DNA of 64,000 bases from an uncultured Halobacteriales archaeon (GCA_964643795.1 CAZXUC010000003.1:13549-77548), one strand, 5' to 3'; shown: positions 10,365-57,156, counted from the first letter of the stretch. Translations and numbers: made by a program. Notes: generated from the sequence alone by a model not told the origin.

Positions 10365-11819
10365 ATGCCCGCCACAGCCGTTGCCAAGTCCAAGGACTTC
10401 ATGGAGTGGTACAATGAAATCGTCGAGGTCGCCGAACTGACGGACAAGCGGTACCCCATCAAGGGCATGAACATTTGGCGCCCGTACGGCCAGAAGATCA
10501 TGTCGCGCATCGACCAGTTCACGCGCGACGAGATGGAGCGGACGCACCATGACGAAGTCTCCTTTCCGCTCATGATTCCGGAGAAGTTGTTCATGAAGGA
10601 GTCGGACCAGATCAAAGGTTTCGGTGCCGAGGTGTTCTGGGTCACGCACGCCGGCGATAATAAGTTGCCCGACAACGAGCGCTGGGTCGTCCGCCCCACG
10701 TCGGAGTGCGCGATGTACGAGATCTTCCCGTTGTGGATTCGGTCGCACAGTGACCTCCCGCTCATGACGTACCAGATCTGCAACGTATTCCGTTACGAGA
10801 CGAAGCAGACGCGCGCCTTCATGCGAGTGCGGGAGATTCATTTCTTCGAGGACCACTCCGTCTTCGCCGACGAGAAGTCCGCCCGCGAACACGTCGCCCT
10901 CGACCTCGACATCGTGCGCAATGTGTACGCCAAGATCGCCCTGCCGGCACTCTACTCGAAGCGGCCAGATTGGGACAAGTTCCCCGGCGCCGTCGACTCC
11001 ACGGGGGCCGACGTCATTATGCCTAGCGGACGCACGCTGCAATGCGCGACTGTGCACTACTACGGCACGAACTTCGCGCAGGCGTACGACATGAAGTTTG
11101 AATCGGAGACGGAAGGCCACAAGCTCTGCCACCAGACGACGTATGGAATGTCCGAACGCCTCGTCGGAGCCGTCGTCGGTTGCCACGGCGATGACAACGG
11201 ACTCATCATGCCGCCCCAGATTGCTCCCATCCAAGTCGTCATCGTGCCCGTGCTCTTCAAGGACGGAAGCGAGCCGGTCCTCGCGCAGTGCAAGGAGGTC
11301 GCTGAGCGGCTGAAGAAGGCGGGCTTCCGCGTCGAATTCGATACGCGCGCCAAGACGTCAGGCGAGAAGTACTACCACTGGGAAGTCCGAGGCGTCCCGC
11401 TTCGCCTAGAGATTGGACCGAAGGATGTCGAGAAGAAGTCCGTCTTCGCTGCCCGGCGCGACATGGGCAAGGAAGGCAAGAAGCCCATCGCCCTAGTGGA
11501 CTTGGAGCAGGGCGTCACGGACACTTTGGCGTCAATCCACACGGCTCTGCTGGAGCGACAACTCGCCTTCGTCAAGACCCGCATCAAGCACCCGAAGACC
11601 CTGGACGAGGCAAAGACCTTGGACCAGGAAGGCCAGAAGTCGGGCACGGGATTCATCCTCGCCATGGCCATCTGCTCCGACACGTGCGCCGCGCAGGTGG
11701 AGAAGGGCCTCGATATCAAGACGCTTGGAGTCCCCGTCGATGAACAGTTCCCGGCGGCACCATGCGGCGTCTGCGGCAAGCAGGCAAAGGACACGCTGCG
11801 GTTCGCGCGCACGTACTAA
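10365..11819 (+). CDS. proS: Prolyl-tRNA synthetase, archaeal/eukaryal type
   Basis: SKDFMEWYNEIVEVAELTDKRYPIKGM..., class II motifs (FRYE, VREIHF), C-terminal zinc-binding-like ...APCGVCGK...Y. Confidence 0.92.
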   Translation: MPATAVAKSKDFMEWYNEIVEVAELTDKRYPIKGMNIWRPYGQKIMSRIDQFTRDEMERTHHDEVSFPLMIPEKLFMKESDQIKGFGAEVFWVTHAGDNKLPDNERWVVRPTSECAMYEIFPLWIRSHSDLPLMTYQICNVFRYETKQTRAFMRVREIHFFEDHSVFADEKSAREHVALDLDIVRNVYAKIALPALYSKRPDWDKFPGAVDSTGADVIMPSGRTLQCATVHYYGTNFAQAYDMKFESETEGHKLCHQTTYGMSERLVGAVVGCHGDDNGLIMPPQIAPIQVVIVPVLFKDGSEPVLAQCKEVAERLKKAGFRVEFDTRAKTSGEKYYHWEVRGVPLRLEIGPKDVEKKSVFAARRDMGKEGKKPIALVDLEQGVTDTLASIHTALLERQLAFVKTRIKHPKTLDEAKTLDQEGQKSGTGFILAMAICSDTCAAQVEKGLDIKTLGVPVDEQFPAAPCGVCGKQAKDTLRFARTY

Positions 11820-11826
11820 CCATACT

Positions 11827-11891
11827 AACCACGAATTTCACGAAGGCCCACGAAACGGACCGTTTCGTGCCAATTCGTGAAATTCGTGGTT
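11827..11891. repeat. R-type hairpin (AACCACGAATTTCACGAA ... TTCGTGAAATTCGTGGTT) just after the proS stop; possible terminator or stabiliser
   Basis: Arms of about 32 nt, near-perfect complementarity. The same AACCACGAATT word is arrayed at 57177-57300. Confidence 0.8.
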
Positions 11892-11918
11892 CCGTAGTGG
11901 TTCATCGCGTCGCGGCCG

Positions 11919-40304: not shown

Positions 40305-40376
40305 GCCGCCTTAGCTTAGCGGTGGAGCGGCGGACTGTTAATCCGCAGGTCGTCGGTTCAAATCCGACAGGCGGCG
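40305..40376 (+). tRNA. tRNA-Asn (GTT)
   Basis: Hand-folded cloverleaf: acceptor GCCGCCT/AGGCGGC, anticodon arm GCGGA-CTGTTAA-TCCGC, T arm GTCGG-TTCAAAT-CCGAC, discriminator G. No encoded CCA. Confidence 0.9.
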
Positions 40377-40391
40377 CTAGTTCTTGCCAAC

Positions 40392-40405
40392 CGAAAACCC
40401 TTATC
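40392..40405 (+). promoter_or_regulatory. BRE/TATA-like motif CGAAAACCCTTATC
   Basis: Lies 16 nt after the tRNA-Asn 3' end and about 20-27 nt upstream of ATG 40423/40429. Confidence 0.4.
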
Positions 40406-40422
40406 GCAGCCGAACCGGTGCG

Positions 40423-41775
40423 ATGGCGATGGAAGGTCGGCCGGCACCGGAAGGGCGCGCATTCTTCTTCGTCGTCGCCCTCGGCGCGGCCGCCGGCCTA
40501 GGCGCCTGGTGGACCTACCCCCATCTTACCGCAGGCTCAGGCTCGCTCCACCTCATCCTGCTTGTCGCGGCTCTCGCGGTCTTGGGTCTTCCCGTCTTCA
40601 TGGCCGAAGGAGGCCTCGGCCAATTCCGCCGGCGCAACGTCGTGGATGCATTCGGACCGGGCCCGATGCGCGCCGCCGGTGCCTTCGTCGCCGTGAGTGC
40701 GGTGCTTGCAGCGGCGCTCGTTGCGGTCGTCACAGGATGGGCGGGCCGCATCGTCATCGAGTCGTTCCGCCCGGATTTCCTGGCCGATCCAGGCCGCGAG
40801 TTCCGGCTCTTGTCGCAGGGCAGCGACGCCATGCTCGGAGCGGCAGCCGTCCTCGCCGTGGCCGCCTTCGTGACGGCGCGCGGCATTCATCGCGGCGTCC
40901 GGCCCGCCGCCGTCATCGCCCTGAGCGCGATGTTCCTGCTCCTTGCCGGGCTCGTAATCTACGCAAATGTCCTTTCTGGCGCAACGCGGGCGCGCTCCGA
41001 CTATTTTTCGCCTGACTTCACCGGCGTGGCGGGCGCCGACTTCGTGCAGGCGGCACAGCAAGCGCTCCTCGTGGTAGCGGTCGGCGTTGGCTTGGTCGCG
41101 ACCCTCGCTGGGAACGGTCCTCACGACCGCAAACTCCCGCGCAAAGCCTTCGCAGTGGCCCTTGGCGCCGTCGCAGTGGTCCTGGCAATCGGCCTGTTCC
41201 TCGTCCCGCTGGCGGCGCACCATGACGCGGAATTGTCCGGGTCGGATGCCGTCTTTGGCGGGCTGTTCACCACCGCGCCTGAACTATTCGCCATGGCAGG
41301 CGAGTCAACCGGCGCCGTCCTCGCGGGGGCATTCTTCGCGGCGCTCGTTGCCTCCGGCATCGCAGCAATCCTGGCGCTCCTCGAGGTCCCCGTGACGTTC
41401 TTGATCGACCGCTGGCCTGCCTGGGGCCGACGCCGTTCTGCTCTGCTCGTTGCAATGGTCGCCTACCTCATCGCCATCCCCCTGGCATTCAGCCGCGCCC
41501 TCGTTGCCGACTCCGTCGTCATCCTCAGCGCCGTCCTGATTCCGCTGGGCGCTCTGCTGTTTTCCCTGCGCGTGGGCTGGGCGGGCCCAGGCATCCTCGA
41601 CGGCTACAACGTGGGGGACGCTCAACACAAGGTCAGCCTTCTCCTGCACCCTTGGTTGCGTTTCGTGACTCCAATCCTGTGCGCCTTCCTCGTCATAGTC
41701 GGCGTCATGGCCTTCTTCGCAGAGACCGGTTCCATCGAACGCGGAACCGGCGGTTTATGGTCATGGGTCCCGTAG
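40423..41775 (+). CDS. Multi-pass membrane transporter, divergent sodium:solute (NSS/SNF-like) family
   Basis: AAAGLGAWWTYPHLTAGSGSLHLILLVAALAVLGLPVFMAEGGLGQF resembles the NSS TM1-TM2 signature. About 11-12 hydrophobic segments. Confidence 0.6.
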   Translation: MAMEGRPAPEGRAFFFVVALGAAAGLGAWWTYPHLTAGSGSLHLILLVAALAVLGLPVFMAEGGLGQFRRRNVVDAFGPGPMRAAGAFVAVSAVLAAALVAVVTGWAGRIVIESFRPDFLADPGREFRLLSQGSDAMLGAAAVLAVAAFVTARGIHRGVRPAAVIALSAMFLLLAGLVIYANVLSGATRARSDYFSPDFTGVAGADFVQAAQQALLVVAVGVGLVATLAGNGPHDRKLPRKAFAVALGAVAVVLAIGLFLVPLAAHHDAELSGSDAVFGGLFTTAPELFAMAGESTGAVLAGAFFAALVASGIAAILALLEVPVTFLIDRWPAWGRRRSALLVAMVAYLIAIPLAFSRALVADSVVILSAVLIPLGALLFSLRVGWAGPGILDGYNVGDAQHKVSLLLHPWLRFVTPILCAFLVIVGVMAFFAETGSIERGTGGLWSWVP

Positions 41776-41783
41776 CACCACAC

Positions 41784-41867
41784 GCGGGGGTAGCCAAGCC
41801 CGGCCAACGGCGCCCGACTTAAGATCGGGTTCTTCGTGATTCGTCGGTTCAAATCCGACCCTCCGCA
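41784..41867 (+). tRNA. tRNA-Leu (TAA), class II with long variable region
   Basis: Acceptor GCGGGGG/CCTCCGC, anticodon arm CCCGA-CTTAAGA-TCGGG, T arm GTCGG-TTCAAAT-CCGAC, discriminator A. The variable arm pairs poorly. Confidence 0.8.
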
Positions 41868-45868: not shown

Positions 45869-45885
45869 GCGACCTCAACCTTGAA
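45869..45885 (+). promoter_or_regulatory. Conserved motif GCGACCTCAACCTTGAA (putative BRE/TATA) upstream of propeller gene 1
   Basis: Identical 17-mer at 49827-49843. Both lie about 24-25 nt upstream of the ATG. Confidence 0.5.
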
Positions 45886-45909
45886 AGCCCAGAAAGCGAG
45901 TCGGGCTCG

Positions 45910-48192
45910 ATGGTCTGGTCGGCGGGGCCCCGTACGCTGGTCGTAGCCACCTTGCTCATGGTTGGCGGGTGCGCGCCGGCGGCCGAGGGGGATTGGTTGC
46001 AACCGGGCGGCGATGGAATGGGTACCGGTCAAGCCCAGGGGGACGGGCCTGCCTACCGCGATGTGGCGCTTTCCCTGGACATCCCTGGAGCGGCTGGTTG
46101 CGGGTCATGCAATGACGTGCCTCGCCCCTTGATTGTAGCGGATTCCATCTTCGCGCTCGTGGTGACGGACCTCGGCGGCATTGCGTCGCGCGTGACGTCG
46201 ACGCTGTTCGAGATCCCCCTCGACACCGGCCTTCCTGTCGAGCGAGCGTCGGTAAGCTCCCCCCAGCGCGACGTTGCATGGCTCACAAGTGACGGCACTT
46301 GGGTCTTCATCGTCACCCAGCAGGAGGCCCATGGATACTCGCTCGAAACACGGCGCCTCGAATGGACAACCCCGCTCCGGCCGCACGAGGAGATTTCACC
46401 ATCCCTCCCGCCTGGCGCCGAAATCCTGAATGCGGCGCTCGAGCAAGCTGTGCGTCAATCATGTGGACCACCGGCGGTGCACAACGGAACGCTGCTCATC
46501 GCATGCATCTGGCGGCTAGGCGTCGTCCCCGACCTCGTCCCGTACGTCGTAGGCCTACGCAATTCGACGGGGGCGCTTGTCGCTGGACCCTATGAGTCGC
46601 GCTTCGGGCCGCTCTCGCACCAGGAATTCATGGCGGACCCTCAGGCTCTCGCCAGCTATTGGGCGGACCAGGCGGCCTTCGGCCAGAATTCGCCTGCGCT
46701 CGCGGTTGTTCGCGGCGTGGCCACGGACGGTCGCTACGTTACAGTGGCGATCGACGTCCCAATTCGGACCTCTACAGCGATCGAGGAGGCCCCGGATTAC
46801 GGGCTGTGGCGCCTGTGGGTCATCGACATGGCGGCGTCGGACGCACCGTTGGAAGGCCAGTGGGTCTTCGACGAAGACACCGATCAAGTCTCCCAGGGAA
46901 CAAATTTCCTTTCGGCGCCCACCATCGTCGGCCCGGACGTGCTCATCGCCCACAATGTCGTCCACCGGTTCCGCCTCGCCCGCGCTGATCCCATCGCCGA
47001 CCACCAGGAGTCGAACAACCTGCGCGATGGCCAAAGCCTCGAATTCGATCAGGGCGCCGGGCTTTCCGTTGCGGGCGGGCACCTCGTGGCTGGAATCGCG
47101 CACCGCCTCTACCGGTTAGATCCCAACCTGTTCCCCATGTGGCGCTACGACCTGGACTCGGGTCAGCGCTGGCAACCCCAGGGGCTGGTCTCAGCAGGCG
47201 AAACCGTGTACGGAGTGAGTGCAGGTTCGAACGAGCTGTCCACCATCCACGGGGTCAACGCGCAGACCGGGGAGCCTGTTTGGGACTTCCCCATGGACCG
47301 CGGCCGGCGCGTGGGCATCGCCGTGAGCGACGGGGTCATGGCGATTCAGGGGGTTTGGGGCAACATCGTCGTCCTTGGCCGACTCCCCTTGTCAATCCAG
47401 CCCGAAGTAGAAAGGACGGAGGCCTATCCTCAACCCGGAGAGGTCGTCCGCGTCGATCTCGGGGAAACTGGCCCGGGCGCATTTGGCCCCGCAACGGAAT
47501 TCCGGGCCGAGTGGGGCGATGGCGAAGTGGACAACTGGCAGGCGGGTCCAGTGTTCCGCCACGTGTACTCCGATGCTGGCGACATGGAGGCTCGGTTCAC
47601 GGCACGAAACGCCCAGAACCAGACATCCTCCGAGGCCATGACGTTCTTCGTCGGCCAGTACCCGCCCGGACAACGCTTCTGGAACGACCCCCTCGACGAG
47701 CGCTACCAGGAGCAATTCTACTTCGTTCTCGGTCTCTTGGCCACCGCCATCATCGCCCTCGTCGGCTTCTATCGGGTCGGACGCAAGCGGCGCCGCCTGG
47801 ACCATGAACTGCGGGACTTAGAAGCCGAGTACAAGCGTCTCGTTGACGATCCGGCGAGCTGCGACTCGATGCTCTCCGAGAAAAAAGCAAAGGCGCGTTC
47901 CCTCTTCTTGCAGAAGAAACTGGAGGAGGCGCACTCGAACTTCCTGGAGCGCCGCATCGACGAATTGCGCCAGGGTTTGCGCGTCTCGGCCGTCGACGAG
48001 AAACTCAAGTTCCTCCCCCACGGCATGGTCCAACACCTGCGCCGCCTACTGCACGACGGCAAAATTGACGCCTGGGAGCGCAGCCACTTCCTCGACGCAT
48101 TGGAGCGGGAGACCACCTTGAACAAGACGCAACGGCAGCAAGTGCGATCGCTCGTCGAGGGATGGTTCGCAAGGGATGCTCAAACGCGGTGA
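45910..48192 (+). CDS. Surface protein: signal/lipobox + PQQ-like beta-propeller + PKD-like domain + TM + conserved cytoplasmic helical domain (paralogue 1)
   Basis: MVWSAGPRTLVVATLLMVGGC; DWLQPGGDG; PVWDFPMDRGRRVGIAVSDGVMAI; PQPGEVVRVDL...WGDGEVDNWQ; TM FYFVLGLLATAIIALVGFY; C-terminus ...LKFLPHGMVQHLRRLLHDGKIDAWERSHF...VRSLVEGWF. Confidence 0.75.
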   Translation: MVWSAGPRTLVVATLLMVGGCAPAAEGDWLQPGGDGMGTGQAQGDGPAYRDVALSLDIPGAAGCGSCNDVPRPLIVADSIFALVVTDLGGIASRVTSTLFEIPLDTGLPVERASVSSPQRDVAWLTSDGTWVFIVTQQEAHGYSLETRRLEWTTPLRPHEEISPSLPPGAEILNAALEQAVRQSCGPPAVHNGTLLIACIWRLGVVPDLVPYVVGLRNSTGALVAGPYESRFGPLSHQEFMADPQALASYWADQAAFGQNSPALAVVRGVATDGRYVTVAIDVPIRTSTAIEEAPDYGLWRLWVIDMAASDAPLEGQWVFDEDTDQVSQGTNFLSAPTIVGPDVLIAHNVVHRFRLARADPIADHQESNNLRDGQSLEFDQGAGLSVAGGHLVAGIAHRLYRLDPNLFPMWRYDLDSGQRWQPQGLVSAGETVYGVSAGSNELSTIHGVNAQTGEPVWDFPMDRGRRVGIAVSDGVMAIQGVWGNIVVLGRLPLSIQPEVERTEAYPQPGEVVRVDLGETGPGAFGPATEFRAEWGDGEVDNWQAGPVFRHVYSDAGDMEARFTARNAQNQTSSEAMTFFVGQYPPGQRFWNDPLDERYQEQFYFVLGLLATAIIALVGFYRVGRKRRRLDHELRDLEAEYKRLVDDPASCDSMLSEKKAKARSLFLQKKLEEAHSNFLERRIDELRQGLRVSAVDEKLKFLPHGMVQHLRRLLHDGKIDAWERSHFLDALERETTLNKTQRQQVRSLVEGWFARDAQTR

Positions 48193-48453
48193 CCCGTCCC
48201 GCTCGTGTTTTCCTTGTTTGCGCCGCCTACCTACGACAGGTGGAGGACGAGCGTGTTGCGCTCGACGTCGCGTGGCCAGTAGGTGCCGCGGCGAAACGCC
48301 CCACTTCGTAGCCCAAGTCTTGGCACCCTCCCCCCCACCGGCTATCTCTCGAACGCACCAAGCAATCTGGCGGTCCGTCAGCTTGACCACCCTGCTGATG
48401 GACGCCCGCCGATAAGCAAGGCTGCGACATAATTGTTGGACGCCACACATCAT
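48193..48453 (-). pseudogene. Orphan resolvase/transposase-type HTH ORF (possible mobile-element remnant)
   Basis: ORF 48046-48453. KLTDRQIAWCVREIAGGGEGAKTWATKWGVSPRHL fits the LTxxQI...A..GVSxR HTH pattern. The rest is Arg-rich and overlaps the 3' end of the neighbouring gene. Confidence 0.3.
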
Positions 48454-48473
48454 ATCCGCCTCAACGGTTAAGA

Positions 48474-49775
48474 ATGGGGCCTTTTGTCTCGCCCACGGTG
48501 CTGCCGATGCGTGAGCTACGAGTGTCCATTGCCTGCCTTGTGACTACCCTGGTTGCGTTCTCGGGTTGCGCCGAGGACGCGGCGACAAACGACGACGATT
48601 CCGGGTCCCTTGGGGCGACTCTCGTGCTGTCGGACGTCGCAGGCGACGCACGGGAGCCAACCGACGTCTTGGGCGCGACCCTCAGCGAAACGCCGGAATC
48701 CCTAGTCATCGAGATTGCAGTTCCGACGCTGCCTCAGGATTTCTCGACCTGGATGCGCTCCGACCTGTCCTGGCTGTGGATGGACGTATGTTGGGGTGAC
48801 CAGGGCAGCGACCCGGATCGGCCAGAATTCGAAGCCTGCGCCGGCCTCACCATCGACAACTCGGGCCCGGTTGCAGACGTGCGCGCGCACTTCGGCGTGT
48901 ACGACGAGGAGGGCTGCAACGACTGGTGGTGGTGTGAATGGAGCGTCCCATACGAACTGACGCCTGGCACGCCGGGCAAGGTCGTGATCACGGTGCCCCG
49001 TGCGTTGTTGCCCGCCGGCGACCAAGGGGACAACTTGACCACGCCCGTGCTGTACAGTAACTCGGCCTACGATGCGGGAGCCCTAAGGTCCACCAACTTG
49101 CCGAGATACTTCGCCGGTGTCGACGCTCCGGTCGTCGGAAATCGGTACGCGTCCGGCCCACCGACGGAGGGCACACGGGAAAAGGATACGTCCACGCCCG
49201 GGGCGGACTTCACGTTCCGCACGGCACGAACGGCGTCGACATTGCCCGCCTCGTTGACCATCATGCAGGACCAAGCCGGCGACGTGGCTGCCGCCGGTCG
49301 AGTCCGAGCCGACCTGGACATCACGGCAGTGGACCTCGAGCCGACCGACAGCAGCCTGACTTGGCGCATCACCGTAAGCGAGGTCGGGCCGGCTCCAACG
49401 CATGCGTTCTACGCGTCGCTTGGAATCGGCACGACCGTCTTGGAAGCCTGGTACAACGCCGTCGGCGGCGTCTTAAGTGGACCAGGCGGCGGTTACTGCA
49501 CCCCCGGATGCAACGGCTACACGGATTACCCCATAACGGTGGAATTCGAGCCGGGGTCGCCGGGTGCCATCCTGGTCTCAATCGCGAAGGCGGACTTGCC
49601 GGATGATCTCTATGAGCACCGTGTAAATCTCGTGGACTTCTACCTGTACGAAGGAGACGGGACTGGCACCTGGATGCTGCCGGTACCACTACCGGCGTTT
49701 GCTTCGGCCGGTGTGTATAGCCCCGGCGATTGGGCGTGGGGCGCCGAGCCCGTGACGTACGGCGCGGCGGCGTGA
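48474..49775 (+). CDS. Lipoprotein, unknown function (partner of propeller gene 1)
   Basis: Lipobox LVAFSGC. 433 aa. Trp/Cys-rich segment CNDWWWCEW. Confidence 0.65.
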   Translation: MGPFVSPTVLPMRELRVSIACLVTTLVAFSGCAEDAATNDDDSGSLGATLVLSDVAGDAREPTDVLGATLSETPESLVIEIAVPTLPQDFSTWMRSDLSWLWMDVCWGDQGSDPDRPEFEACAGLTIDNSGPVADVRAHFGVYDEEGCNDWWWCEWSVPYELTPGTPGKVVITVPRALLPAGDQGDNLTTPVLYSNSAYDAGALRSTNLPRYFAGVDAPVVGNRYASGPPTEGTREKDTSTPGADFTFRTARTASTLPASLTIMQDQAGDVAAAGRVRADLDITAVDLEPTDSSLTWRITVSEVGPAPTHAFYASLGIGTTVLEAWYNAVGGVLSGPGGGYCTPGCNGYTDYPITVEFEPGSPGAILVSIAKADLPDDLYEHRVNLVDFYLYEGDGTGTWMLPVPLPAFASAGVYSPGDWAWGAEPVTYGAAA

Positions 49776-49826
49776 CCTGGCGACGAACGCGATGCCCCGA
49801 GGTACGCATCACGGCAAGGTGCACGA

Positions 49827-49843
49827 GCGACCTCAACCTTGAA
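49827..49843 (+). promoter_or_regulatory. Conserved motif GCGACCTCAACCTTGAA upstream of propeller gene 2
   Basis: See 45869-45885. Confidence 0.5.
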
Positions 49844-49868
49844 GAAGTCGCCAGGGAAGTCGGGGCCA

Positions 49869-52115
49869 ATGGTCGGTCGCGTGGTCGCGCGTTGGCAGGT
49901 TGCACTAGCGGTGGCACTGGTGGGGGCCGGGTGGGCTCCCGCGGTGCAGGCGGATTGGTTGCAAGCCGGCGTGGACGCGCAGCGCACCGGTTACACGGAT
50001 GAGAACGGTCCGGCCTGGAGCGATGTTGCGTACACGCTGGCCCTGAACGTCTCTAAGAACCAGGAGCCGCCAGTGTCGATCGCAATCGTCGCTGGCAAGG
50101 CGTACGTCGGGGCTTGGAAATGGCCAAGCCATTCAACCATCTACGAGATCGAGCTCGGGACGGCGCAATGGCGTGAATTCGCGCGGCCAATCGTGGACAA
50201 CCCGCTCTCCGCGGGGCCAAATGGCGGGTACGAAACCCGGGCGCCCCTCGAGTTCGCAAGCGACGGAGTGCATTTTTTTGCTCTCTTCGACCCGGGCGAG
50301 GTCCAGGCCTTCGACCTTTCCACGGGTGACCTGGAATGGAAACTGCGCATTACCAATGCGACGGTCCTGCACGATGCAACATGGCCAGTGACGAATCTGG
50401 ACCCTGGGCAGCCTTGCCGTCGTGGCTCCGAACTGGCACTGGCCAACGGAACGCTCTATGTCGCCTGCGACATCAACCAATCGACGGCCGTGGCCGTTTC
50501 AGCCATCAATATCACGGCGGGGCGGCTCGTTTGGACCCACGTCCTGCAAGCGGCCGGCGCGCTCTTGCTTCCGACGCCCAGCCCTTTGGTTTACCCCACG
50601 GGTCTTTCAATCCTGGGAGAGGTGGTGGTCGTGGCAACATACTCGGGCCCCCAGGCAGGCGGCACAACCGGAACGACGGCCGTGGACCTGGAAGCTGCTG
50701 CGTCGTCGTACCATGCCTTGCTCCGGGCGGGCAGGCCCGTGACCGGTGTTCCAGAGCAATGGGTCGGGCACGAGGAGTGGTGGGCCCAAGGCCCGCGAGG
50801 AGCGGTAAGCAACTGGCCACCTCCGGCCACGGGCAATGGCGTCCAGGTCTTCCTCGAACTGGAAAGATTGATTTTGCGTGATGCCGGCAACACGTCGCAA
50901 GCGAACGCCAGAGCGGTGCCATTCCGGCCAGTGGCGGGTGCGCCGGAGACCCCGGATCCAGGTAGCGGTTTTGTCTTGGCCCCCGAAGGGCTCTACGCCA
51001 CCAGCCAGACCGGAATCCACCGCCTGGACGAAGGCTATTCGACTCTGCGCTCCTGGACGCTGCCCCTAGGAAGCCAATGGGCTCCCGGGCCTCTGGTGCG
51101 TACTGGAAATGGAATCATCCTTGGTAGGACAGGTCCTGCCGGCGCTGGCTTCCTCGATCCGCACCCAGGCCTGCAAGCCCTGGAGGCCGTGACGTTGCGC
51201 CCGCTGTGGAACCACTACAAGGACGCCACCTTCGCGTTCGCCGTCTCCGACGGACTCGCCGTGTTGTGGTCGTACGATGGCGTGCTGCAGGTACTGGGGG
51301 CGAACGAAGTTTCGCTTCAGCCCGTGCTCCGCGTTTCGTCACGCATCCCGCAACCGGGCGACGTGGTGCGCGTCGACCTGTCAAGGTCGCACGCAGGAAC
51401 CGGCTCTTTCGGACCTCCCACGGAATTCAAGGCAAACTGGGGCGACGAAACCGAGACGGATTGGCAGGCGAGCCCAATCTTCGAGCACCGGTTCCTTGAT
51501 TCACTTGACGCTGACGCGCGGTTTTTCATCCGCAATGCGAACCAGACTTCGTCCCAGGCCGTGCTTTTTCGCGTCGGCGGCGACCCCGACCTGACGTACC
51601 TGCAGCAGCAGTTCTCGCAAGAGAACCAGGAGCGGACGTTCTTCTTCCTTGGTCTTGTCCTCACCGCTTTGGGTGCCGTTTTCGGGTTCTGGCGCCTGCG
51701 GGCCAAACGCGGCCGCCTCCAAGAAGAACTCGACGCCATCACGGCTGCATACGAGCGCAACAAGGACAACGCCACAGCCTGCGAAGCGGCGCTAGCAGAA
51801 CGCCGTGCCCATGCCCATGGATTGGCCGTGGACGGCAAACTCGACGAAGGCCAAGTCGCGCTGCTCGAACGCCGCATTGAGGAACTCCTCGGACGCCTCC
51901 GCCTCGGCGCCGTAGATGCACGCCTACACTTCCTGCCGTATGGCATGGTCTTGACGTTGCAGCAGATCCTCAAGGATGGCCAAATCAATGCGTGGGAGCA
52001 TCGCCATTTCATCGAAGCGCTAGACGGCGAACGCCTGCTCGCGGCGGGCCAGAAAAAGGAAGTCAGGACGCTCATCGATTCGTGGTTCCGAAAAGACGCG
52101 GGGGCGATGCCGTGA
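49869..52115 (+). CDS. Surface protein: signal + PQQ-like beta-propeller + PKD-like + TM + conserved cytoplasmic helical domain (paralogue 2)
   Basis: MVGRVVARWQVALAVALVGAGWAPAVQADWLQAGVDAQRTGY; PQPGDVVRVDL...WGDETETDWQ; TM FFFLGLVLTALGAVFGFW; C-terminus LHFLPYGMVLTLQQILKDGQINAWEHRHF...VRTLIDSWF. Confidence 0.75.
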   Translation: MVGRVVARWQVALAVALVGAGWAPAVQADWLQAGVDAQRTGYTDENGPAWSDVAYTLALNVSKNQEPPVSIAIVAGKAYVGAWKWPSHSTIYEIELGTAQWREFARPIVDNPLSAGPNGGYETRAPLEFASDGVHFFALFDPGEVQAFDLSTGDLEWKLRITNATVLHDATWPVTNLDPGQPCRRGSELALANGTLYVACDINQSTAVAVSAINITAGRLVWTHVLQAAGALLLPTPSPLVYPTGLSILGEVVVVATYSGPQAGGTTGTTAVDLEAAASSYHALLRAGRPVTGVPEQWVGHEEWWAQGPRGAVSNWPPPATGNGVQVFLELERLILRDAGNTSQANARAVPFRPVAGAPETPDPGSGFVLAPEGLYATSQTGIHRLDEGYSTLRSWTLPLGSQWAPGPLVRTGNGIILGRTGPAGAGFLDPHPGLQALEAVTLRPLWNHYKDATFAFAVSDGLAVLWSYDGVLQVLGANEVSLQPVLRVSSRIPQPGDVVRVDLSRSHAGTGSFGPPTEFKANWGDETETDWQASPIFEHRFLDSLDADARFFIRNANQTSSQAVLFRVGGDPDLTYLQQQFSQENQERTFFFLGLVLTALGAVFGFWRLRAKRGRLQEELDAITAAYERNKDNATACEAALAERRAHAHGLAVDGKLDEGQVALLERRIEELLGRLRLGAVDARLHFLPYGMVLTLQQILKDGQINAWEHRHFIEALDGERLLAAGQKKEVRTLIDSWFRKDAGAMP

Positions 52116-53191
52116 AGGCGTGGCCGCTGCTCATCATGGCCGTCGTCGCGGGTTGCCTTTCACCGCCAAAGGGCGGCGACGTCGTTCCCGCTGATTCCGA
52201 TCTGGATTTCCTCGTTGGCGACGACCCGGCGTCCCGCACCACTGCCGCAGCTCCACGTTGGGCGACGGGTGAATGGTGGCAGTACCACGTGCTTCTCCAC
52301 TATACGGGCGCGGAATACGACGTCACTCGCGTCGTGGCCGGTCGCGATGGCGACAACTACACGGTCGGGATGCCGCTGGAGGATTGGGAGGCCATGGGCG
52401 ACAACGTCATCGGCTACCACTTGCCAGGCTTGGGCGATGTCCGTGTGAGTGACCTCATGTACGAAGTCCATGACCTGCCCTACAAGCTTCTTGACTTTCC
52501 CCTCCAAGCCGGCGATTCCTGGCAGGCGGGGTTCGAGTTCAGCGAGGTCATCGTCACAGTGGAATCAGCCGATGCCGCGGGCGCCGTGATGCGCGTGGAG
52601 AAGATGTACGAACAGGCCTGGGGTCCGGTCGCGGCGCCCGTGACGAACCGCGTCCTAGGCGATGTCTACACGGCACGCGCCGAATATGATGCAAGGCTGG
52701 GCGAGGTCCGTTTGCTCGACATTCCGGGCTACGCCCGCGTCGAGGTCGTTGACCACGGATACGGGTTCGAGGGGACGGTGCGCGTCCCGCGCAACCAAGG
52801 AATGCCCTTTGTCAACGGTCGGATTGCGGGCTTGCCGGATCGAAACGACCCGACGCACCCGATCACGGGCGAAGCCCACGTGGAAGACGTCTATGATCGG
52901 ATGGCGCTGACCCTCGGCGCCGGATCGCTTGCGTTCGAGGGGCAGCAATCGACGGGCTACTACAAGGAAACGGCACGCGGGCCCGATGGGGAATACGTCC
53001 TGGAGAAAGTGCCGCCAAACACGGCACTGGAATTCAAGCACTTCTCCGTCGAACGGCCCGGCGGCGCTTGGACGTTCGAACACATCGCCATCGGCCCCGG
53101 TGGCGCCCAGTCAGAGGCGTTCGCCTATGAGATTCATGACGTCACGGTCCCTGGTCTCCAGGTCACGCGACCGGCATGGCGGACGGCTTGA
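52112..53191 (+). CDS. Lipoprotein, unknown function (partner of propeller gene 2)
   Basis: GTG 52112 overlaps the upstream TGA (GTGA). VKAWPLLIMAVVAGC has a lipobox. Confidence 0.65.
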   Translation: MKAWPLLIMAVVAGCLSPPKGGDVVPADSDLDFLVGDDPASRTTAAAPRWATGEWWQYHVLLHYTGAEYDVTRVVAGRDGDNYTVGMPLEDWEAMGDNVIGYHLPGLGDVRVSDLMYEVHDLPYKLLDFPLQAGDSWQAGFEFSEVIVTVESADAAGAVMRVEKMYEQAWGPVAAPVTNRVLGDVYTARAEYDARLGEVRLLDIPGYARVEVVDHGYGFEGTVRVPRNQGMPFVNGRIAGLPDRNDPTHPITGEAHVEDVYDRMALTLGAGSLAFEGQQSTGYYKETARGPDGEYVLEKVPPNTALEFKHFSVERPGGAWTFEHIAIGPGGAQSEAFAYEIHDVTVPGLQVTRPAWRTA

Positions 53192-55507: not shown

Positions 55508-56383
55508 GTGGAACGCCTCGTGGCCCTCCGCAGCGTCGTCGTGCAACCGCCGCCCAAGGCCGCGTCGCCTGCCACCCCTGCGGCCGGCCCGCGCCGCACC
55601 GTTGTCGCTCGCGCCGGCCCGCCGCCCCACGCCCGAGGGCGCTTTGCGGACATGCTGGCGGGCATCGTGGGCATCCTGCTCCTCGTTGCAACAATCGGCC
55701 TCGTGCAGGTCCTGCCTGAGGACGAGGTCATCCTGCCGCAGTTCACGCTGTTCTTCGTCCACCAGGAGGGCGGGAGCAGGAATTCCACGACGGACATCGT
55801 CTTCACGGAGGCGCCACCCAACAACGTGAAGACCTACGCATTCGAGGTGCCGGACAACGCCTTCGAACTCGTGGTGCGCATGAGTTTCACCGACGACATC
55901 GCCGCGAGCCTGCCGGATCGGTTCCGCATCGAGATCCTCGACCCGACAGGCGACGTGCGGGGCGGAGAGGCGTTGGCAACAAGCGCGCCGCCCACCACCT
56001 TGCCACCGCCAGACCAATTTACCTACGTTGCGACGCCCACCACCGTCGTCCACCGCATCTCCATCGCCGTCGTGCCGCCCGACGAGATCGTGCCCGGGAC
56101 TTCGGCCGACGAGACGCAGGGTGAGGTGCTCGATCGAATCGCGCCCGACCACGTCGTCGAAAGCGCGGGGACGTGGACCGCGCGCATCACCCTCATCGAA
56201 GCGGGCGACTGCCCGAGCGCTGACCAATCGGACCAGAACCGCGTCTTGGCTTGCCGGCTCGACGCGCAGGACGGAGAGGACCACGGCAACGCTGTCACGT
56301 TGGAGGCCTTCCTTGTGAGCTACTTCGTGCCATGCGTCCAGCTGCTCGACGCCAAAGTCCTTGCGACCTGCCTAACCACGTAG
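55508..56383 (+). CDS. N-terminally anchored surface protein, unknown function
   Basis: Basic N-terminus, TM MLAGIVGILLLVATIGLV, beta-rich ectodomain (…FRIEILDPTGDV…GTWTARITL…). Strong TATA CCTTTAAGTAAAT at about 55480-55493. Confidence 0.55.
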   Translation: MERLVALRSVVVQPPPKAASPATPAAGPRRTVVARAGPPPHARGRFADMLAGIVGILLLVATIGLVQVLPEDEVILPQFTLFFVHQEGGSRNSTTDIVFTEAPPNNVKTYAFEVPDNAFELVVRMSFTDDIAASLPDRFRIEILDPTGDVRGGEALATSAPPTTLPPPDQFTYVATPTTVVHRISIAVVPPDEIVPGTSADETQGEVLDRIAPDHVVESAGTWTARITLIEAGDCPSADQSDQNRVLACRLDAQDGEDHGNAVTLEAFLVSYFVPCVQLLDAKVLATCLTT

Positions 56384-56523: not shown

Positions 56524-57156
56524 ATGGTCGCCACTGACACCTTGGTCGGCATCGTCGGCGCCGCCGTCCTCTTCGCGGTGATGGCGGGCGTCTTCGTGTA
56601 CGAATACAACAACACGCCCGAAGTCAACGGCGGAGGCAACGGCAACAACGGCGGCAACCTTAGCTTCGCCGAGCAGTACCCCTTCCTGGATCCCGTTCAG
56701 GACATCGACGGCGACGGCACTCCTAACGGCGTGGATGATGACGTCGACGGTGACGGGGTGTCGAACGCCAGCGACAACGAGACCGTGGTTGGTCCGAAAT
56801 CGATTGGGAGCGGCTCGCTTGGCCCCCAAGTCGGCGACGTCGTCGCGCCGTCGGTCAGCCTTCAATTCATGGTCGGCAACGGGTCCAGCCATGTGACGGC
56901 GACCATTACGGTTAGCTCCGCCGCCAGCCAAGGGCCGGTCACCGGAAACTTCCAAGTCATGCTCGTGGACCCGAGCGGGGCGACCGTGGCCACGGCCAAC
57001 TCCGCGGCGCCGTTCACGCAGACTTCCTTCACCTTGGAATCTAAGATGGACTCCGACCCGGAGCCGGGCACGTGGACCGTGCGCATCTCGCAAAATTCCG
57101 CGGGCTCCGGCGGAAACGTCGCGGGCACGGCGACGATCCACTACGGCGACCACTGA
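56524..57156 (+). CDS. N-terminally anchored surface protein with Asp-rich Ca-binding-like repeats
   Basis: TM LVGIVGAAVLFAVMAGVFV; DIDGDGTPNGVDDDVDGDGVSNASDNE (thrombospondin-type-3-like); C-terminal ...VMLVDPSGA...GTWTVRIS. Confidence 0.6.
   Translation: MVATDTLVGIVGAAVLFAVMAGVFVYEYNNTPEVNGGGNGNNGGNLSFAEQYPFLDPVQDIDGDGTPNGVDDDVDGDGVSNASDNETVVGPKSIGSGSLGPQVGDVVAPSVSLQFMVGNGSSHVTATITVSSAASQGPVTGNFQVMLVDPSGATVATANSAAPFTQTSFTLESKMDSDPEPGTWTVRISQNSAGSGGNVAGTATIHYGDH

Follow-up and report, generated by a model that had tools for sequence, protein, structure and literature searches.

Two genes in the window, the whole 64,000-nucleotide stretch of archaeal DNA analysed here, encode proteins with a propeller, an Ig-like domain, a transmembrane (TM) helix and a tail, and each gene is followed by one for a putative lipoprotein. 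The original prediction read this arrangement as a tandem duplicated module acting as a receptor or signal-transduction device, which raises the question of how the two pairs are related and what their products might do. The propeller genes are referred to as A and B and the lipoprotein genes as C and D, and the features of the locus are as follows:

45869..45886, + strand: 17-mer GCGACCTCAACCTTGAA, with core CCTCAACCTTGAAA, ending 24 nt before the ATG of A
45899..45915, + strand: second common block AGTCGGG-N4-ATGGTC, at -11 to -5 and across the start codon of A
45910..48192, + strand: gene A, ORF of 760 aa encoding a propeller/Ig/TM/tail protein (signal peptide at residues 1-~26, DWLQ motif at residue 28)
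~45997-47379, within A: eight-bladed BamB/PQQ-like propeller, residues ~30-490
47422-47652, within A: Ig/PKD-like domain, residues 505-581
47707-47784, within A: TM helix, residues ~600-625
47785-48189, within A: cytoplasmic six-helix domain, residues 626-760
48206..48222, + strand: T-rich stretch GTGTTTTCCTTGTTTG directly 3' of the A stop codon, a possible archaeal terminator as read from the sequence
48459..48472, + strand: element variant CCTCAACGGTTAAG, upstream of C
48474..49775, + strand: gene C, predicted lipobox lipoprotein, 433 aa as called
49827..49844, + strand: identical 17-mer GCGACCTCAACCTTGAA, ending 25 nt before the ATG of B
49858-49874, + strand: block AGTCGGG-N4-ATGGTC for B, from an alignment of the two upstream regions
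49869..52115, + strand: gene B, 748 aa, architecture identical to that of A (Ig-like domain starting at residue ~493)
~51627-51701, within B: TM helix, residues ~587-611
51702-52112, within B: tail, residues 612-748
52112..53191, + strand: gene D, predicted lipobox lipoprotein, 359 aa, MKAWPLLIMAVVAGC

Locus layout and upstream elements

The four ORFs agree with the positions originally given, and the lipoproteins predicted behind each propeller gene were recovered. When tested against the lipobox pattern [LVI][ASTVI][GAS]C, the N-termini of C (...LVAFSGC) and D (...MAVVAGC) both agreed, each after a basic n-region and a hydrophobic h-region, and both products are thus predicted prokaryotic lipoproteins with AFSGC and VVAGC, respectively, as lipoboxes. 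The true start of C is probably the ATG at 48507, giving MRELRVSIACLVTTLVAFSGC. The GTG start of D overlaps the TGA stop of B (GTGA), an overlap already pointed out in the original prediction, and D is therefore probably translationally coupled to B. A minus-strand ORF in the gap between A and C (48046-48453), HTH-like by eye and without a Pfam match, was discarded. None of A, B, C or D matched the anti-phage defence models of PADLOC. The host looks archaeal, judged from a Pelota-like gene and an NFACT gene in the window and from the homologues in Thermoplasmatota MAGs.

The identical 17-mer noted previously at about 25 nt before both ATGs is found in exactly 2 copies in the window, with 0 expected by chance. 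It occupies the expected BRE/TATA site of a leaderless archaeal mRNA and, judged from this position, may act as a promoter; at related loci, canonical TATA boxes lie 16-21 nt before the ATGs. The AGTCGGG-N4-ATGGTC block may likewise represent a promoter-proximal or initiation region. A pattern built post hoc from the sites upstream of A, C and B, CCTCAACNNTKAAR, had 3 matches in the window compared to 0.01 expected, all on the + strand and directly upstream of one of these three genes. The four genes probably form three transcription units (A, C and B-D), and as the CCTCAAC-NN-TKAA element heads each of them, co-regulation of the three is suggested. The 10-mer CAACCTTGAA was rejected as a general promoter consensus: it has seven one-mismatch matches elsewhere in the window, and the few of them that were checked against the ORF list did not obviously precede genes on the + strand.

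A and B are old members of a large family

The A and B ORFs proved significantly similar at both ends, with 40% sequence identity (E 5e-80) over the C-terminal 386 aa and 29% (E 2e-9) over the N-terminal ~200 aa. They have the same layout, and the five common features listed in the original prediction are all present, in agreement with the proposed paralogy and domain order. Each protein ranks about 25th among the best 150 listed matches of the other, which indicates that A and B are ancient paralogues. The C and D lipoproteins showed no detectable similarity to each other (BLASTP E 0.83). Given the age of the A/B paralogy and the lack of a relationship between C and D, the locus is thus not a tandem duplicated module.

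The family was revealed by an exhaustive HMMER search, which returned at least 697 representatives (50% identity clusters) at E<=1e-3 and 166 at E<=1e-30. Word-indexed searches missed it, with full-length A returning only A itself and the tail alone returning nothing, the parent protein included. In the best 150 of the 697 HMMER matches, for which the architecture was inspected, nearly all proteins were 700-800 aa long with the Ig-TM-tail block at the C-terminus. Short matches considered as stand-alone tail proteins were rejected, as most start inside the ectodomain and are evident fragments; P0143 (182 aa) has a short N-terminus followed by a TM helix and tail. Genome loci were scanned using a 5-sequence C-terminal alignment as the query, and nine out of nine GTDB loci belonged to Thermoplasmatota or unclassified euryarchaeal MAGs, with up to about 10 family copies per genome (in one MAG). 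A metagenome scan gave only 3 short loci. The family has so far been found only in Thermoplasmatota-type archaea.

The extracellular propeller

The AF2 model of full-length A (pLDDT 87, pTM 0.76) contains 32 strands between residues 52 and 490 at high pLDDT, which make up eight four-stranded blades. Using Foldseek, the propeller was matched to BamB (E 4e-12, TM 0.70), Rv3035 (E 1.7e-11, TM 0.67) and the eight-blade designed protein Tako8 (TM 0.75). The PQQ-like blades proposed previously are thus clear by structure, while being marginal in Pfam, where PQQ_2 (PF13360) scored 27.6 bits in B, equal to the cutoff of 27.6, and 14.8 bits in A. When a 60-sequence family profile was used in a word-indexed search, only generic BamB/PQQ proteins were retrieved, up to E 2e-23. 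In bacterial envelopes, the BamB/Rv3035-like propeller fold is used as a platform to bind proteins or ligands.

The originally predicted signal sequence and DWLQ.G.D..TG motif are kept across the family, and an extracellular Cys pair is conserved (C185/C199 in A, C183/C200 in B). The mean pairwise identity of the propeller is 22%, and its length ranges from 394 to 466 aa.

A constant Ig-TM-tail module

The PKD-like segment of the original prediction is sub-threshold in Pfam, with PF00801 and PF18911 scoring 20.9 bits (cutoff 23.5) and 19.7 bits (cutoff 27), respectively, in A and giving no match in B; in the AF2 model of A, residues 505-581 are predicted to form a beta-sandwich at a pLDDT of ~97. 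As predicted, a single TM helix was found, followed by RKRRR, which together with the signal peptide and the extracellular Cys pair agrees with the proposed N-out/C-in topology. An invariant Gly (120 of 120 sequences) lies on a face of the TM helix that is made up of small residues, the others being at i+4, i+7/8 and i+11. Mean identity amounts to 45% in the Ig-like domain, 43% in the TM helix and 44% in the tail, the last as expected from the conservation claimed for it, and there are almost no indels. The family-invariant residues (P507, G582, G608, R691, D716, E723 and W752) all lie within this constant module.

The tail of ~135 aa was modelled by AF2 as a compact six-helix domain (pLDDT 93, pTM 0.81), at odds with the coiled-coil-like heptads suggested earlier. 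It had no significant match in Pfam, NCBIfam, PDB sequences, PDB folds or BFVD folds (the best Foldseek match to PDB folds had an E of 1.8), and the original prediction was thus correct in finding it unrecognisable; nor, with no match in any library, did it turn out to be a known domain with a trivial role. The tail domain resembles nothing known, and the family is undescribed. No Pfam or NCBIfam matches to HisKA/HATPase, REC or Pkinase were found in A, B or 36 family tails, and the tail contains no catalytic-looking or nucleotide-binding motif that would point to an output mechanism.

An identity with SHOCT or TerB was considered for the tail and rejected in view of the Pfam scores, hhalign and Foldseek. 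In SHOCT (PF09851), a Gly and a Glu are conserved within a pair of helices (PMC3581485), and the tail similarly has two helix-(D/E)G-x-(I/L)-x3-E-helix elements, whose DG...E motifs also resemble TerB-style (PF05099) motifs. SHOCT is a two-helix unit of about 30 aa; it was matched in 2 of the 36 tails (best E 0.028), and neither the consensus tail nor the two putative repeats gave a match. TerB was matched in 6 of the 36 (best E 0.003), the consensus tail scoring 14.6 bits against a cutoff of 24.4, and no TerB structure was found among the Foldseek PDB matches of the tail. The internal repeat of the tail was not significant (hhalign 8.6%).

Genomic neighbourhoods and lipoproteins

A neighbouring lipoprotein gene was found at about 4 of 16 other family loci, and the lipoproteins represent three sequence-unrelated families, one of them encoded upstream and not downstream. 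The adjacency of propeller and lipoprotein genes, to which the original prediction attached weight, is thus largely not conserved, and direct tandem paralogues are a commoner theme. A homologue of C (26% identity, E 3e-12) is encoded immediately upstream of a family gene in locus L005, and D had no homologue in any fetched locus. Neither C nor D had a match in Pfam, NCBIfam or PDB, and no Pfam or PDB sequence matches were found for the 'X' type lipoproteins of L019/L002 either. Remote homology among C, D and the 'X' type was rejected, as only the signal peptides aligned in BLASTP and hhalign, and no convincing extra lipobox ORFs were found in the gaps of L003, L004 and L006-L013. In about 16 neighbourhoods no conserved partner gene was found, the contexts being housekeeping and differing between loci.

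Possible roles of the family

The original interpretation as a whole is partly supported. A and B are old paralogues within a large multigene family of type-I surface proteins that span the membrane once. The best reading, to which we give about an even chance, is that the family serves in binding or reception at the cell surface by means of variable heads and a constant tail, with signalling as a putative further function. Each protein consists of a fast-evolving, eight-bladed BamB/Rv3035-like propeller outside the cell and the constant Ig-TM-tail module. The variable heads may bind different extracellular partners, with the putatively co-regulated neighbouring lipoproteins as candidates, and the constant TM helix and tail may drive homo- or hetero-oligomerisation. 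A single conserved cytoplasmic partner would be the docking site of the tail, so that extracellular events would be coupled to something inside the cell.

A true signalling receptor, in which a ligand bound by the propeller shifts the oligomeric or conformational state of the TM helix and tail to control a cytoplasmic effector, e.g. a transcription regulator, with the paralogue expansion as a sensory repertoire, is possible but doubtful. Receptor families typically pair a variable ectodomain with a constant cytoplasmic domain and have many paralogues in each genome, as is the case here, and to this extent the original reading as a receptor or signal-transduction device is plausible. The tail residues R691, D716 and E723 are charged and invariant, and indels are not tolerated. 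Furthermore, the order of propeller, Ig-like domain and TM helix recurs in Bacteroides hybrid two-component sensors (HTCS) among the Foldseek matches, and bacterial BamB-like propellers are fused to Ser/Thr kinases (P0158, P0172). Against this reading, no kinase, cyclase, HAMP, DNA-binding or other known output domain was found, no regulator, conserved signalling gene or cytoplasmic partner gene adjoins the family members, and the Foldseek TM-scores to HTCS sensors are only 0.11-0.20. Somewhat unlikely, in our estimate, is a bolder version, in which the Ig-TM-tail module would define an unrecognised class of archaeal single-pass receptors, running from variable heads via a glycine-zipper TM helix to a six-helix signalling or docking fold. 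If true, this class would give archaea an equivalent of eukaryote-style receptor families that relies on neither two-component nor chemotaxis systems, and CCTCAAC-NN-TKAA would mark a regulon including lipoprotein co-receptors.

Propeller plus PKD is also the classic make-up of archaeal surface-layer and expanded adhesion-type surface proteins, and the heads are multi-copy, fast-evolving and often tandem, as would suit purely structural envelope, S-layer-type or adhesin proteins with the tail as an anchor aiding insertion or lattice formation. We regard this as unlikely: a 135-aa cytoplasmic domain with twice the conservation of the ectodomain and with invariant polar residues goes beyond the needs of an anchor, an S-layer usually consists of one or two abundant proteins and not of about 10 divergent paralogues, and no YVTN or S-layer Pfam signature was found. 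It is very unlikely that the proteins are membrane-tethered extracytoplasmic enzymes, such as a PQQ-dependent dehydrogenase or a tetrathionate-hydrolase-like catalyst, even though Foldseek matched tetrathionate hydrolase (E 5e-11, TMt 0.63) and methanol dehydrogenases (E ~1e-10). The non-catalytic BamB and Tako8 gave much higher TM-scores (0.70-0.75) than the dehydrogenases (~0.4), PF01011 matched only a fragment in B (profile positions 497-580 of 595, E 0.038, 13.1 bits, cutoff 26.7) and had no match in A, and conservation within the protein is lowest in the propeller (22% identity, variable loop lengths), unlike in a domain bearing an active site.

As a variable-head, constant-tail surface family, these proteins bear on a little-known subject, namely how, other than by two-component and chemotaxis systems, surface and cytoplasm are linked in wall-less or S-layer-only archaea, e.g. 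Thermoplasmatota. Besides being multi-copy within genomes, the family is abundant in metagenomes, and conservation is highest in a cytoplasmic domain whose confidently predicted fold has no relatives among known families or solved structures, i.e. a new domain to name and characterise. If the tail is a signalling or cytoskeleton-coupling module, the family would represent a new archaeal transmembrane communication system; if not, it would still be a useful marker of surface diversification in Thermoplasmatota.

Comparison with known systems

BamB and Rv3035 are, like the heads of A and B, eight-bladed and extracytoplasmic, at a sequence identity of about 12-14% to the A/B propeller. Both are stand-alone bacterial propellers without an Ig-like stalk, TM helix or cytoplasmic domain, and BamB itself is a lipoprotein, whereas A and B carry a TM helix and tail instead. 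The BAM machinery is, to our knowledge, absent from archaea. Rv3035 serves as an envelope scaffold and binds a lipoprotein, FecB, at a Kd of 27.5 nM (PMC13041763), a pairing that parallels the lipoprotein genes adjoining A and B.

The Bacteroides HTCS proteins BT4663 and BT4673 share with A and B one or more extracellular propellers, an Ig-like domain (Y_Y_Y), a TM helix and a cytoplasmic module, but the structural match to A is confined to the propeller (TM 0.11-0.20). Both HTCS and propeller Ser/Thr kinases have recognisable kinase or response-regulator outputs, which the A/B tail lacks.

Archaeal surface proteins with propeller and PKD domains are thought to be mediators of cell-cell interaction (Jing 2002, Structure 10:1453, on Methanosarcina mazei; cited in PMC10354927 and PMC5498576). 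These proteins resemble A and B in being archaeal and secreted, in having a propeller followed by PKD/Ig-like domains, and in forming expanded paralogous families thought to mediate surface interactions. They have seven-bladed YVTN propellers, often with several PKD or beta-helix domains, and a conserved module of TM helix and cytoplasmic domain is not known to have been described in them. In contrast, the A/B family has an eight-bladed PQQ-like propeller, and the constant Ig-TM-tail module is its defining feature.

Gene organization and paralogy

Two propeller genes, A and B, are each followed by the gene of a lipobox lipoprotein, C and D, respectively:

45910–48192, + strand: gene A, propeller protein of 760 aa
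48474–49775 as called, + strand: gene C, lipoprotein of 433 aa, lipobox AFSGC
49869–52115, + strand: gene B, propeller protein of 748 aa
52112–53191, + strand: gene D, lipoprotein of 359 aa, lipobox VVAGC

All four ORFs lie where they had originally been placed, and an independent gene call on a publicly available assembly of this DNA (Logan SRR6868923) recovered all four identically. The GTG start of D lies on the TGA stop of B (GTGA overlap). By sequence, A and B are clear paralogues, with 40% of positions identical in the C-terminal 386 residues (E 5e-80) and 29% in ~200 N-terminal residues (E 2e-9). The feature is real and was for the most part correctly described, including ORF coordinates, paralogy, the upstream 17-mer and the lipoboxes. 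The duplication that gave A and B is not recent, since each ranks only around 25th of 150 in the BLAST list of the other, behind proteins from other genomes. The called start of C (48474) puts 11 extra residues (MGPFVSPTVLP) before a canonical signal peptide, MRELRVSIACLVTTLVAFSGC. That peptide begins at an ATG at 48507 with GGTG 7 nt upstream; this ATG lies 34 nt past the upstream motif and is more probably the start of C than 48474.

The window has a G+C content of 61–67% and is presumed to come from a member of the Thermoplasmatota. Its other products include a Pelota-like protein (eRF1 domains 1 and 3), an archaeal-type RNA methyltransferase and an NFACT protein. At 40305–41867, a sodium:neurotransmitter symporter (SNF) gene (40384–41775) is tightly placed between tRNA-Asn(GTT) and tRNA-Leu(TAA). 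Two adjacent unannotated proteins (55508–56383 and 56524–57156, both + strand), lacking Pfam matches above threshold, each have a hydrophobic helix near the N-terminus (residue ~49 of the former ORF as listed, ~5 of the latter) resembling, by eye, archaeal class III (pilin-like) signal peptides, and the second protein carries Asp-rich DxDxDG-type repeats, DIDGDGTPNGVDDDVDGDGV.

Upstream elements and probable transcription units

Exactly two copies of the 17-mer GCGACCTCAACCTTGAA are present in the 64 kb, against none expected by chance, ending 24 and 25 nt ahead of the ATGs of A and B, and a second block, AGTCGGG-N4-ATGGTC, is common to both genes at the start codon. As A and B are old paralogues, a 17/17 match outside coding sequence implies selection or conversion and not a leftover of duplication. 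The degenerate core CCTCAACNNTKAAR has three matches in the window compared to 0.01 expected, a statistic that is optimistic because the pattern was derived post hoc from the same sites; each lies immediately 5' of one of the genes A, C and B, on the + strand. In related loci a canonical TATA box occurs 16–21 nt ahead of the ATG, so that the element sits where a BRE/TATA of leaderless mRNAs would be expected. A T-rich run, GTGTTTTCCTTGTTTG (48206–48222), begins 14 nt past the stop of A and may be an archaeal terminator, in which case A would be a transcription unit of its own. We infer three co-regulated units: A, C and B–D.

Domain architecture and the constant module

Pfam annotation was marginal, with PQQ_2 exactly at threshold in B (27.6 bits) and below threshold in A, and PKD matching in A only, below threshold. 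An AF2 model of A, built from a 60-member family alignment, was confident (pLDDT 87, pTM 0.76), and predicted eight blades formed from 32 strands (residues ~52–490), a beta-sandwich (505–581), a single 45-residue helix crossing the membrane (600–644) and five more helices up to the C-terminus. An N-out/C-in topology is fixed by three features: a signal peptide, two conserved Cys residues on the extracellular side, and RKRRR directly after the TM helix.

Conservation was compared between the domains of 60 full-length family members.

Mean pairwise identity and length variation of the domains
Propeller: 22%; 394–466 aa
Ig-like domain: 45%; small variation, 73–86 aa
TM helix: 43%; essentially none
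Cytoplasmic tail: 44%; essentially none

All family-invariant residues (P507, G582, G608, R691, D716, E723 and W752) are within the constant module formed by the Ig-like domain, TM helix and tail. The TM helix has a Gly in 120/120 sequences, followed by small residues at i+4, i+7/8 and i+11, which together make up one helix-packing face, suggestive of TM–TM association.

The tail was originally described as having coiled-coil-like heptads. Modelled alone with 43 homologues it instead formed a compact six-helix domain (pLDDT 93, pTM 0.81) and not an extended coiled coil. The statement that this domain could not be recognized was borne out: no relative was found in Pfam or NCBIfam (where C and D also had no match), among PDB sequences (best E 0.06, coiled-coil noise throughout), PDB folds (best E 1.8, TM ≤ 0.45) or BFVD folds (best E 0.77). 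Two helix-DG-x-(I/L)-x3-E-helix elements, not significant as an internal repeat, had raised the suspicion of SHOCT or TerB. Both were rejected, as SHOCT matched 2/36 tails (best E 0.028) and TerB 6/36 (best E 0.003), with the consensus tail scoring 14.6 bits against a TerB cutoff of 24.4. LapA_dom matches in 25/36 tails probably reflect no more than the TM helix with the basic stretch beside it, which are exactly the matched region in the one tail for which it was reported.

Distribution and genomic context of the family

In an exhaustive HMMER search with a profile of the Ig–TM–tail region of A and B, representatives of 697 clusters at 50% identity matched at E ≤ 1e-3; the number falls to 356 with a limit of 1e-10 and to 166 with one of 1e-30. 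Among the best 150 of the 697, nearly all were 700–800 aa long and had the matched region at their C-terminal end; most shorter matches begin within the ectodomain and are evidently fragments, an assignment that does not include the family protein P0143. The named relatives of A and B are all from MAGs, either Thermoplasmatota or unclassified euryarchaeal ones, and among GTDB representative genomes the family is present in four MAGs. One MAG, SMAG_U7947 (DATDQL01, Thermoplasmatota), encodes ~10 copies on six contigs (L003, L005–L009), several in direct tandem, which is a strong lineage-specific expansion.

The reading of the locus as a tandem duplicated two-gene module could not be upheld, as C is not related to D (E 0.83) and lipoprotein adjacency was the exception across about 16 other independent loci. 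In L019/L020 and L002, a tandem pair of family genes precedes one or two lipoproteins of a third, unrelated type, and in L005 a C-type lipoprotein lies directly upstream of a family gene; the remaining loci had no neighbouring lipoprotein, their neighbours including DUF5655, a ribosomal operon, a convergent acyl-CoA dehydrogenase and small membrane proteins. The case for a lipoprotein partnership is weak. Directly adjacent tandem paralogues, often with a 4-nt overlap, were the commoner theme (L002, L003, L007, L009, L019, L021), and no cytoplasmic partner gene recurred across the loci.

In L014 the family gene is overlapped by a DUF5655 gene directly downstream (2509–2925), and a homologue occupies the same position in L011 (695–1051); this is a recurrent, not a universal, neighbour. 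In L019, tyrosine integrase (128–1174) and serine resolvase/recombinase (10827–11903) genes flank two tandem family genes and two paralogous lipoprotein genes, a block that may sit on a mobile island. The family protein P0008 is followed by two small paralogous multi-TM proteins of 105 and 121 aa (L017 5167–5863; L018 7554–8250) and preceded by a 228-aa protein (L017 2068–2754); the 228-aa and 105-aa proteins had no Pfam match. Downstream of a family gene in L008 (7197–8229) are a membrane protein of 222 aa and an ORF of 123 aa, the latter resembling, by eye only, an ArsR-type winged-helix regulator.

Functional interpretation

In Foldseek comparisons, the head of A matched BamB (E 4e-12, TM 0.70), mycobacterial Rv3035 (TM 0.67) and the designed Tako8 (TM 0.75), with PQQ dehydrogenases lower (TM ~0.4), and the family profile brought up BamB-family proteins (best E 2e-23). 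The closest structures to the modelled head are thus non-catalytic eight-bladed scaffolds; that the proteins are enzymes is highly improbable. A head of the BamB/Rv3035 type would serve as a binding platform, and the conservation of the Ig–TM–tail module speaks for assembly through the TM helix and for a specific intracellular interaction that is itself conserved. A purely structural role appears quite unlikely, and a true signalling receptor, somewhat less unlikely, is still doubtful; the module may serve signalling, mechanical coupling or assembly alone. The best-supported picture is that of a family of variable-head, constant-tail archaeal surface proteins, for which a generic binding or docking function is about as likely as not.

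For Rv3035, binding to the lipoprotein FecB (27.5 nM) and a scaffolding role for an envelope enzyme have been described (PMC13041763). Surface proteins combining propeller and PKD domains are a known archaeal theme, as far as the work of Jing (2002) is represented in PMC10354927 and PMC5498576. Genuinely new are the constant Ig–TM–tail module and the large unnamed archaeal family with its novel cytoplasmic domain.
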